Virus record (IMG/VR): IMGVR_UViG_2534681654_000003
Coordinates: 1 to 8,520 of that record
Length of the DNA stretch: 8,520 bases
Reading direction: 5' to 3' (one strand)
DNA from: a virus
Taxonomy: Duplodnaviria > Heunggongvirae > Uroviricota > Caudoviricetes
Positions 3,586 through 4,344 of the stretch are shown here, piece by piece. Below the pieces are notes generated by a model. It searched no databases. It had not been told where the DNA came from and saw nothing but the letters and a program-made list of their open reading frames with translations. The number at the start of each line of letters is the position of its first letter. Positions within the stretch are counted from its first letter, which is position 1. The translations under genes were made by a program, and so were the position numbers.

Positions 3586-4293
3586 ATGGTTCAGAATGAA
3601 AAAGTGCGCAAAGAATTCGCCCAGCGGCTAGCGCAAGCCTGTAAAGAAGCTGGTCTTGATGAACATGGTAGGGGAATGGCTATAGCCCGTGCCCTTTCTC
3701 TTTCGTCCAAAGGCGTTAGCAAATGGTTTAATGCTGAGTCTTTACCGCGTCAGGAAAAAATGAATGCGCTTGCGAAATTTCTAAACGTTGATGTTGTTTG
3801 GCTTCAGCACGGCACTTCGTTAAATGGAGCGAATGATGAAGATACTCTTTCATTTGTTGGCAAATTAAAAAAAGGGTTAGTGCGCGTGGTTGGTGAGGCA
3901 ATTCTTGGTGTTGATGGTGCCATCGAGATGACCGAAGAGCGCGATGGGTGGCTCAAAATTTATAGCGATGATCCAGATGCCTTTGGTCTTCGTGTGAAAG
4001 GAGACAGCATGTGGCCCAGAATAAAATCAGGAGAATATGTACTCATTGAGCCTAACACCAAAGTATTCCCGGGTGATGAGGTGTTTGTCAGAACCGTTGA
4101 AGGACACAACATGATTAAGGTTCTTGGCTATGACAGAGATGGAGAATACCAATTTACAAGCATTAACCAGGATCACAGGCCTATAACGTTGCCTTATCAT
4201 CAAGTAGCAAAGGTGGAGTATGTAGCTGGTATTCTGAAGCAATCTCGCCATCTGGATGACATCGAGGCAAGGGAGTGGCTGAAAAGTTCGTGA
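3586..4293 (+). CDS. cI: CI-type prophage repressor with N-terminal HTH and C-terminal S24 (LexA-like) autopeptidase domain
   Basis: 235 aa. GDSM serine motif and a downstream lysine (MIKVL) in the C-terminal half. Divergent from cro. Not lambda, 434 or P22 c2 immunity by recalled sequence. Confidence 0.85.
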   Translation: MVQNEKVRKEFAQRLAQACKEAGLDEHGRGMAIARALSLSSKGVSKWFNAESLPRQEKMNALAKFLNVDVVWLQHGTSLNGANDEDTLSFVGKLKKGLVRVVGEAILGVDGAIEMTEERDGWLKIYSDDPDAFGLRVKGDSMWPRIKSGEYVLIEPNTKVFPGDEVFVRTVEGHNMIKVLGYDRDGEYQFTSINQDHRPITLPYHQVAKVEYVAGILKQSRHLDDIEAREWLKSS

Positions 4294-4344
4294 CTTCATC
4301 GTCACATAGCTGGTAACCAGTGGCCTGAAGAGACGTTTGGGTAA
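4294..4344 (+). pseudogene. Fossil 3' end of a lambda-like cI gene, in frame after the functional cI stop
   Basis: Directly after TGA (4291-4293) the same frame reads [16 protein letters not shown] then TAA (4342-4344). This matches the lambda CI C-terminus [12 protein letters not shown] (recalled). Confidence 0.55.

Follow-up and report, generated by a model that had tools for sequence, protein, structure and literature searches.

In the model reportedly due to Hendrix and Juhala the novel joints of lambdoid phages arise by illegitimate recombination followed by selection, and boundary or linker sequences are said to belong to the modular theory of phage evolution of Susskind and Botstein, such boundary sequences having reportedly been described in HK620 by Clark et al. 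in 2001. The random-joint view of Hendrix and Juhala is presented as one side of a debate (PMC3945230). The interval between cI and N is, in two papers which cite Degnan 2007 for it, a hotspot of mosaic diversity with accessory and abortive-infection genes co-transcribed with cI (PMC8585504, PMC7067206), and P2-like phages and P4-like satellites have, in the accessible part of PMC9122126, defence hotspots between conserved core genes. Here we describe the left border of the cI-N interval in an 8,520 nucleotide (nt) stretch of a virus of the Caudoviricetes (the window, i.e. the whole stretch of DNA that was analysed; positions 1 to 8,520 of IMG/VR record IMGVR_UViG_2534681654_000003), and more precisely the tail of some 50 nt which follows the stop codon of the repressor gene cI. 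The window corresponds to the early-left and immunity region of a Shiga-toxin lambdoid phage of the 933W type, with 99% identity to 933W and to Stx2 phage 86 over the parts in common and a cI that is 99% identical to that of both phages. The 60 nt separating cI from the next gene (L0084 in 933W, orf62 in phage 86) carry no annotation in the records of the two phages. The junction (window 4215-4365) was found in 616 of 5426 complete E. coli genomes, with a coverage of at least 80% in 419.

With a probability of about 0.8 we read window 4294-4344 as a two-layer recombination scar without function of its own, left by two successive swaps of the repressor gene. A lambda-type cI (ending ...CAG TGG CCT GAA GAG ACG TTT GGN stop) would first have been replaced by a repressor gene of the L031 or SH2026Stx1 type, and the last ~24 nt of the lambda-type gene would have stayed behind as non-coding sequence 4 nt past the new stop. 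A 933W-type immunity module would then have taken the place of the L031-type repressor. Its right junction would lie within 2-8 nt from the stop of the 933W cI, so that ~21-25 nt from the end of the L031-type gene, TAA included, remained ahead of the older scar. The recipient would have contributed the DUF3024 gene downstream.

The older layer is recognised by its identity with lambda. The cI gene stops with TGA at 4291-4293, the next base being C, and its frame continues as CTT CAT CGT CAC ATA GCT GGT AAC CAG TGG CCT GAA GAG ACG TTT GGG to a TAA at 4342-4344, an open stretch of 16 codons. A reading made from the sequence alone (the sequence-only reading) had proposed that this frame encodes an end like that of lambda CI. 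Translation bears this out: the C-terminus of lambda CI (translated from cI of NC_001416) resembles the tail peptide, and window 4318-4340 equals J02459 37231-37253, the lambda bases directly before the cI stop, in 23/23 nt; the resemblance is one of nucleotides as well as of peptides. Layer 2 comprises the codons of QWPEETFG through the second base of the Gly codon, in frame 0 with the 933W cI. Its 20-mer TGGCCTGAAGAGACGTTTGG (4321-4340) is also identical in the cI 3' ends of VT2-Sakai, HK97, CL707, mEp234 and others, and, with up to 3 mismatches allowed, still has a single copy in the window (0.00 expected, 200 shuffles). The attribution of the tail to a lambda-type cI end holds for these last 8 codons, the only residues of lambda CI that the tail keeps, and fails for the preceding LHRHIAGN; similarity to lambda is limited to QWPEETFG, and at 4299-4320 lambda (9/22) and Sakai (8/22) match at random level. 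In 94 933W-type contigs, sampled independently of the 20-mer, it was exact in 74, present in some form in 92 and absent in 2; fifteen contigs carry a variant with two third-codon-position changes (CCA, GAA) and three carry other changes, including TGG to TGA. TGGCCAGAGGAAACCTTCGG is an example of a synonymously recoded TGGCCTGAAGAGACGTTTGG.

The younger layer stems from a different repressor gene. Window 4296-4316 reads TCA TCG TCA CAT AGC TGG TAA, i.e. SSSHSW and a stop, in frame +2 relative to cI. Scanning viral contigs for the 20-mer yielded a class of 245 amino acid repressors with HTH and S24 domains (L031/L062), whose stop codon is the TAA within ...TGGTAACCAG, immediately 5' of the 20-mer. 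Intact repressors of this type end in ...RIIGRVFWSSHSW and a stop (FWSSHSW-stop; DNA TGG TCA TCG CAT AGC TGG TAA, as in L320). Window 4299-4320 matches the L031, L320 and L325 repressor 3' ends, their TAA included, in 20-21/22 positions without gaps (P ~1e-10 in fixed register), and when one extra Ser codon is allowed the match to L320 begins at 4296. LHRHIAGN would accordingly be read here as a coincidence of frame. Phage SH2026Stx1 matches at 92% over repressor and tail.

Upstream of the junction (4199-4295) the window agrees with L320 and L325 in 28-29/97 positions, the random level, and downstream in 19/20 within the 20-mer and in 350/355 (98.6%) through the DUF3024 gene. Since the identity switches at ~4296, the right junction of the 933W module is placed a few bases from its own cI stop. 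The locus thus has the properties of a mosaic joint, an abrupt switch from random level to near-identity and leftovers homologous to the ends of intact genes (20-21/22 for the L031 type, 23/23 for lambda cI). The arrangement expected before the second replacement exists: L320, L325 and L334 carry an L031-type cI, CCAG, the 20-mer and the same DUF3024 gene. A further scan was anchored inside the L031-type repressor and is therefore independent of the 20-mer; of the 51 contigs obtained, 31 end in ...CATAGTTGGTAACC and continue into unrelated DNA without the 20-mer, and in the other 20 the stop is followed by CCAG and the 20-mer, and in 15 of those by the same DUF3024 gene. The recipient would have been an L031-type (SH2026Stx1-like) phage already bearing the lambda-type scar. 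PhiR12_2 has the same cI as the window and the same tail through 4316, and diverges exactly past the TAA of the remnant, whose end is therefore itself a junction point. Phages of the ST2-8624 type match the window no further than 4342.

These data also bear on a simpler history, in which all 16 codons would be the in-frame remnant of a single lambda-like cI. The tail is indeed in frame and open, and its IAG-N-QW loosely resembles the IAS-QW of lambda; moreover TAGCTGGTA (9 nt) is repeated in frame at an interval of 84 nt (4223 and 4307), which could hint at an insertion into a hybrid gene. Against this, 4299-4320 is at random level with lambda and Sakai and matches the L031, L320 and L325 ends down to their TAA, no coding class among the 20-mer loci has the required ending, and a scan for the hybrid (...TATGTRGCTGGTAACCA) gave 26 loci, all of them unrelated genes and none followed by the 20-mer. 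No intact cI gene ending like the full tail was found in the 20-mer loci or in the hybrid scan. The one-step origin is thus largely refuted and we regard it as very unlikely. Of the sequence-only reading, the scar of an immunity replacement with its right junction at the 3' end of the displaced repressor is supported; what has to be given up is the single lambda-like ancestor surviving in frame over 16 codons, 4299-4320 being an L031-type remnant in another frame. The 84-nt insertion into a hybrid cI was rejected likewise, as the hybrid scan returned unrelated genes only. The repeat itself is exact and direct, with one copy (4223-4231) in the VAG codons of the 933W cI and the other (4307-4315) in the L031-type remnant; by a rough estimate ~0.04 such 9-nt repeats are expected by chance in a region of this size.

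The repressor has its own complete C-terminus in addition to the tail, as had been noted from its alignment with the corresponding lambda segment, and the Pfam coordinates of Peptidase_S24 agree with this: the domain spans residues 104-207 of 933W CI (profile 10-109 of 116) and 105-227 of lambda CI (profile 1-116). By position the 933W ...YVAGILKQ... would be equivalent to ...VIASQWPE... of lambda. This equivalence was taken from the profile coordinates because BLASTP aligned only the catalytic core of the two proteins (131-169 with 140-184, E = 5e-5). The tail does not cover the S24 domain, as the profile ends at lambda residue 227 and leaves residues 228-237 outside.

The coordinates of the scar, of its surroundings and of its counterpart in lambda are collected in Table 1.

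Table 1. Features of the window, and the counterpart of the scar in lambda (last row).
Feature	Position	Strand	Remarks
P	348-1799	-	window gene list
O	1774-2673	-	window gene list
cII	2845-3141	-	window gene list
cro	3280-3507	-	window gene list
933W-type cI repressor gene	3586-4293	+	235 amino acids; HTH_3 (Pfam 1e-5) and Peptidase_S24 (Pfam 4e-16)
Left recombination junction	4294-4295	+	L320/L325-type similarity starts at ~4296, or at 4299 ungapped
Layer 1 of putative scar: end of L031/L320-type (SH2026Stx1-like) repressor gene with TAA	4296-4316	+	nucleotide match to intact genes
Layer 2 of putative scar: CCAG and TGGCCTGAAGAGACGTTTGG	4317-4340	+	last codons of lambda-type cI, here non-coding
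Third base of fossil Gly codon and fossil-frame stop TAA	4341-4344	+	right edge of junction; modules differ beyond
Shine-Dalgarno-like TAAGGAGG	4342-4349	+	4 nt 5' of next ATG; overlaps fossil TAA
DUF3024 gene (933W L0084, phage 86 orf62), first cI-N accessory gene	4354-4695	+	Pfam DUF3024 2e-31
Terminator-like hairpin GGTCGCAGAAGTGCGGC and T-run	4721-4741	+	terminator search
N	6233-6616		window gene list
Putative reciprocal scar in lambda	~37226-37188 (NC_001416; L001 = 35000-38400)	reverse	39 nt right after cI stop

Scars of this kind appear to have been left in both directions. The lambda cI-rexA spacer CTGATCGGCAAGGTGTTCTGGTCGGCGCATAGCTGATAA, directly after the cI stop, reads LIGKVFWSAHS followed by two stops, and is identical to the 3' end of the L031/L320-type repressor (IIGRVFWSSHSW, then stop) in 30/39 nt without gaps; the match scores 28/35 against 19/35 for the next-best 35-mer in 3.4 kb of lambda, both strands included. 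On this similarity the start of the lambda spacer is probably a remnant of the C-terminus of an L031/phi80-family repressor, a mirror image of the scar in the window. The mutual scars in the window lineage and in lambda therefore indicate that the two repressor families displaced each other, in either direction, each swap between the lambda type and the L031 type thus leaving the last 20-40 nt of the loser.

Programmed read-through of UGA gives C-terminally extended proteins, as in the A1 protein of Q-beta, and UGA followed by C is a weak termination context in E. coli. As in that type of read-through, an in-frame open extension stands behind the UGA here, and a fraction of CI might carry a lambda-like C-terminal extension of 17 residues with a role in the switch. 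The 16 codons behind UGA-C are open and in frame, and the reading frame stays open in ~90/92 of the contigs bearing the motif. However, a match of frame has a prior of 1 in 3, and the motif is in frame in 4/7 repressor classes, which is not significant. Unlike in Q-beta, half of the extension is the end of another gene read out of frame, the extended CI is hypothetical and the extension is not conserved as protein: changes across the contigs are H to Y, H to P, G to D, N to S and W to stop, and PhiR12_2-type phages have the same cI with a different tail in which the 20-mer part is missing. The cI stop is TGA in 97/97 contigs, with no sense-codon variant. A read-through product with a role in the switch is accordingly judged extremely improbable.

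The 20-mer was then followed across repressor classes and genera. Four diverged cI C-terminal classes, among them ...CNESCSVVGKVIASQ- and ...CNENCNIVGKVIASQ-, have it as their coding end; the 45 nt before it differ substantially between these classes and the 20-mer is identical. In at least 7 classes of HTH and S24 repressors it is non-coding and follows the stop at a distance of 27 nt (933W type), 6 nt (phi80), 3 nt (HK225), 4 nt (L031), 3 nt (L037), 11 nt (L050) or 32-34 nt (L032/L088), the last class retaining a longer remnant before the 20-mer. Outside E. coli a degenerate genome-wide scan, with one genome per species, gave mostly lambda DNA contamination in unrelated assemblies and chance matches in GC-rich genomes; there were ~20 informative loci in Enterobacterales or Aeromonas. 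Copies at the coding end were found in Mixta, Pantoea, Citrobacter and Aeromonas. Other copies follow the stop of a 434-like repressor in Pantoea formicae and of repressors of the L037 and L088 types in Enterobacter, and Erwinia has an orphan copy with a terminator directly after it. The variants outside E. coli are synonymous (CCG, ACA/ACT, TTC), and this cross-genus variation at third-codon positions points to selection at the protein level in the coding copies.

Such recurrence could also mean that selection acts on the 20-mer, or on the whole spacer, as a cis element of RNA or DNA for expression, processing or regulation of the transcript of cI and the moron genes behind it. The 20-mer is kept after the stops of many unrelated repressors and in 92/94 of the 933W-type contigs, its position is always between cI and the first co-transcribed gene, and the start of some downstream genes, GTGATG, overlaps the fossil stop. 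We nevertheless consider this unlikely. The fold of 4270-4365 is no better than that of shuffled sequences (minimum free energy -21.3 against -22.6 +/- 3.0, z = +0.41), and in the spacer 4294-4353 no promoter or terminator site and no Rfam match was detected. Among 19 haplotypes, a small sample of related sequences, 5/20 sites vary in the 20-mer, 6/27 in the remnant and 9/60 in the cI end, with no extra constraint visible on the non-coding 20-mer or on the tail; the leftover is, as in a mosaic joint, no more constrained than its neighbours. PhiR12_2-type phages and 31/51 of the L031-type phages do without the 20-mer, and in the window the DUF3024 gene has its own strong Shine-Dalgarno TAAGGAGG past the 20-mer, in the segment common to the window and L320, L325 and L334. 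The third-codon variation across genera is also what is expected under peptide selection in coding copies. There is thus no support for a function of the tail, which is probably neutral debris.

Several points weigh against the two-swap reading. The CCA and GAA changes of the 15 contigs are both at third-codon positions, a pattern that junk DNA would not be expected to show without import from a coding copy; an import from a coding allele is the simplest explanation of this variant. The intact 20-mer in 74/94 contigs and in many independent repressor classes could reflect selection for a cis function that escaped detection. The remnant has one Ser codon more than L320 and the exact donor was not found. 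The order lambda type, L031 type, 933W type, and its direction, we infer from present-day arrangements, and crossovers inside the 20-mer are putative. Finally, the tail is open and in frame behind UGA-C, so that low-level extended CI could be made.

As to why the same 20-mer recurs, it would be both the conserved coding end of the commonest family of lambdoid cI C-terminal domains and the exact line at which two hypervariable modules meet, the immunity region and the accessory or defence genes co-transcribed with cI, and from this position it would offer a short patch of shared homology for the exchange of either side. Its 211 occurrences join 11 upstream (repressor) classes with 41 downstream classes in 65 combinations, the 41 downstream classes beginning right after TTTGG-N-stop; the 933W-type repressor is joined to 18 downstream modules and the lambda C-terminal domain (lambda-CTD) type to 25, of which at least 12 are in common. 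This is the pattern of a linker, a short conserved sequence with differing modules on either side. A length of 20-24 nt is near the minimal homology for recombination, and we infer that the island may serve as a short-homology crossover point. Rad52-like phage recombinases drive exchange between short diverged sequences, also in lambdoid phages (PMC3945230, PMC2327257), and ~30% of recent mosaics show traces of flanking homology (PMC3945230), findings with which a crossover at the island is consistent. Random joints also fit, if survivors are only those which fall in the now dispensable 3' end of the displaced repressor because the start signals of the downstream gene follow immediately. That TGGCCTGAAGAGACGTTTGG and other short repressor 3' ends (e.g. 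...CATAGCTGGTAA) are active crossover linkers for immunity modules and cI-linked defence cassettes in lambdoid phages of Enterobacterales is therefore put forward as a tentative and rather doubtful proposal.

Compared with the systems named at the outset, the scar resembles the novel joints of lambdoid phages in that unrelated sequence gives way abruptly to near-identical sequence at the end of a gene, in the short remnant of a displaced gene and in requiring no function; it differs from them in having two joints superimposed within 50 nt. A purely random-joint model does not predict the re-use of one 20-mer by many independent repressor types. The short island of identity with interchangeable modules on both sides (11 x 41 classes, 65 combinations) is like the linkers of the modular theory, but unlike dedicated intergenic linkers the 20-mer is the coding end of one gene family, its use in crossovers is putative, and its conservation can be due to peptide selection in the coding copies; in at least 7 classes it stays non-coding, yet it is conserved no more than neighbouring DNA and varies across genera at synonymous sites. 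The same cI-N slot that contains rexAB in lambda and bstA in BTP1 (PMC8585504, PMC7067206) has the fossil at its left border. As in the P2 and P4 hotspots described in the accessible part of PMC9122126, diverse anti-phage genes are swapped between conserved flanks at a fixed position of a temperate phage, but the flanks there are whole conserved genes and the persistent left flank here measures ~20-24 nt.

Scars of mosaic joints are already known in lambdoid phages, and this case is an unusually well resolved one. The available parts of PMC8585504 and PMC7067206 describe the variability of the slot and do not mention a shared 20-nt left border or fossil repressor ends, and a literature search for WPEETFG gave no matches. 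The accessible literature was not found to describe the two layers, the lambda counterpart of the scar or the 20-mer as common left boundary of the defence slot linked to cI, although key older papers may hold an earlier description. In practice the 933W tail would be harmless debris, to be left without a coding annotation and no indication of an extended repressor. Its 50 nt would show in which order two repressors were replaced in the ancestry of a major Shiga-toxin phage, and lambda, phi80 and many other prophages contain records of this kind. On its left the cI-N slot, with RexAB, BstA, PD-Lambda-2 and many candidate defence genes, is bounded by the 20-mer, which is a possible sequence anchor for cataloguing such genes and a natural test case for phage mosaicism by short shared homologies as against random joining. 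If the linker proposal were true, unrelated repressors capturing the 20-mer tag would reach defence modules from a common pool, the modular theory in its old linker version would gain concrete support at the level of sequence, and a 20-nt handle for mining defence genes would be at hand.

The contents of the slot were surveyed in 30 of the downstream classes; many of the 41 modules are known or candidate genes against phages. The first genes after the 20-mer include RexA, BstA (3 classes), PD-Lambda-2_A, PDC-M63A, PDC-S13, PDC-S05 and PDC-S43, and further a type I specificity subunit, HigB toxin, P63C, DUF6932, an SDH-type protease, NYN, KilA-N and Bro-N, in agreement with the published view of the cI-N hotspot (PMC8585504, PMC7067206). 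The DUF3024 protein of the window is the PADLOC defence candidate PDC-S43 (5e-42), to which no function is assigned. The element of GGTCGCAGAAGTGCGGC and T-run which stands after its gene directly follows the 20-mer in phages without a gene in the slot; downstream of the motif it occurs at 0-50 nt in 4 loci and at ~350-400 nt in 15, compared with 0/125 in the upstream control, and the DUF3024 gene is flanked by the two shared sequences, 20-mer and hairpin, in 15/119 loci. That the terminator regularly closes the slot on the right was rejected, as this is true for just 20/119 loci. A second terminator-like hairpin follows the DUF3024 gene at window 4858-4878.

Some further observations concern single loci. 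In phi80-type loci a small hydrophobic open reading frame (ORF; MREYLIVGVVTLLSVVAIVLMVA, then stop) lies between two copies of the 20-mer (1503-1610 in L004, phi80 JX871397; 7546-7652 in L050). In L050 the copies are 87 nt apart; the second is exact there and degenerate in phi80, and the stop of the ORF is inside it. The small ORF looks like a mini-cassette flanked by junction sequence. In VT2-Sakai (L002, NC_000902) the lambda-CTD-type cI at 833-1528 is annotated as a short fragment and a coding sequence of 170 amino acids, i.e. split, and from 1540 onward there is a DUF3024 homologue, similar at its start, with no annotated coding sequence, whose ungapped identity fails after ~50 nt; this homologue appears to be disrupted, probably by an indel. 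The exact lambda cI-rexA junction was also met on tiny or low-coverage contigs of Limosilactobacillus, Fusobacterium, Enterococcus, Nocardia-like actinomycetes and Capnocytophaga (L213, L214, L225, L233, L236, L238, L240, L243, L257, L275, L276 and others), almost certainly contamination of these assemblies with lambda DNA.

Elsewhere in the window, L0083, stk and L0081, which 933W and phage 86 carry between the DUF3024 gene and N, are absent (window 4700-6230), and in their place an ORF of 177 amino acids (window 4885-5418) matches phrog_2602, with function unassigned and no PADLOC match, which is more variation within the cI-N slot. An ORF at window 7235-7600 matches phrog_1510, annotated as superinfection exclusion, and is another lysogeny- or defence-related gene of the early-left region.

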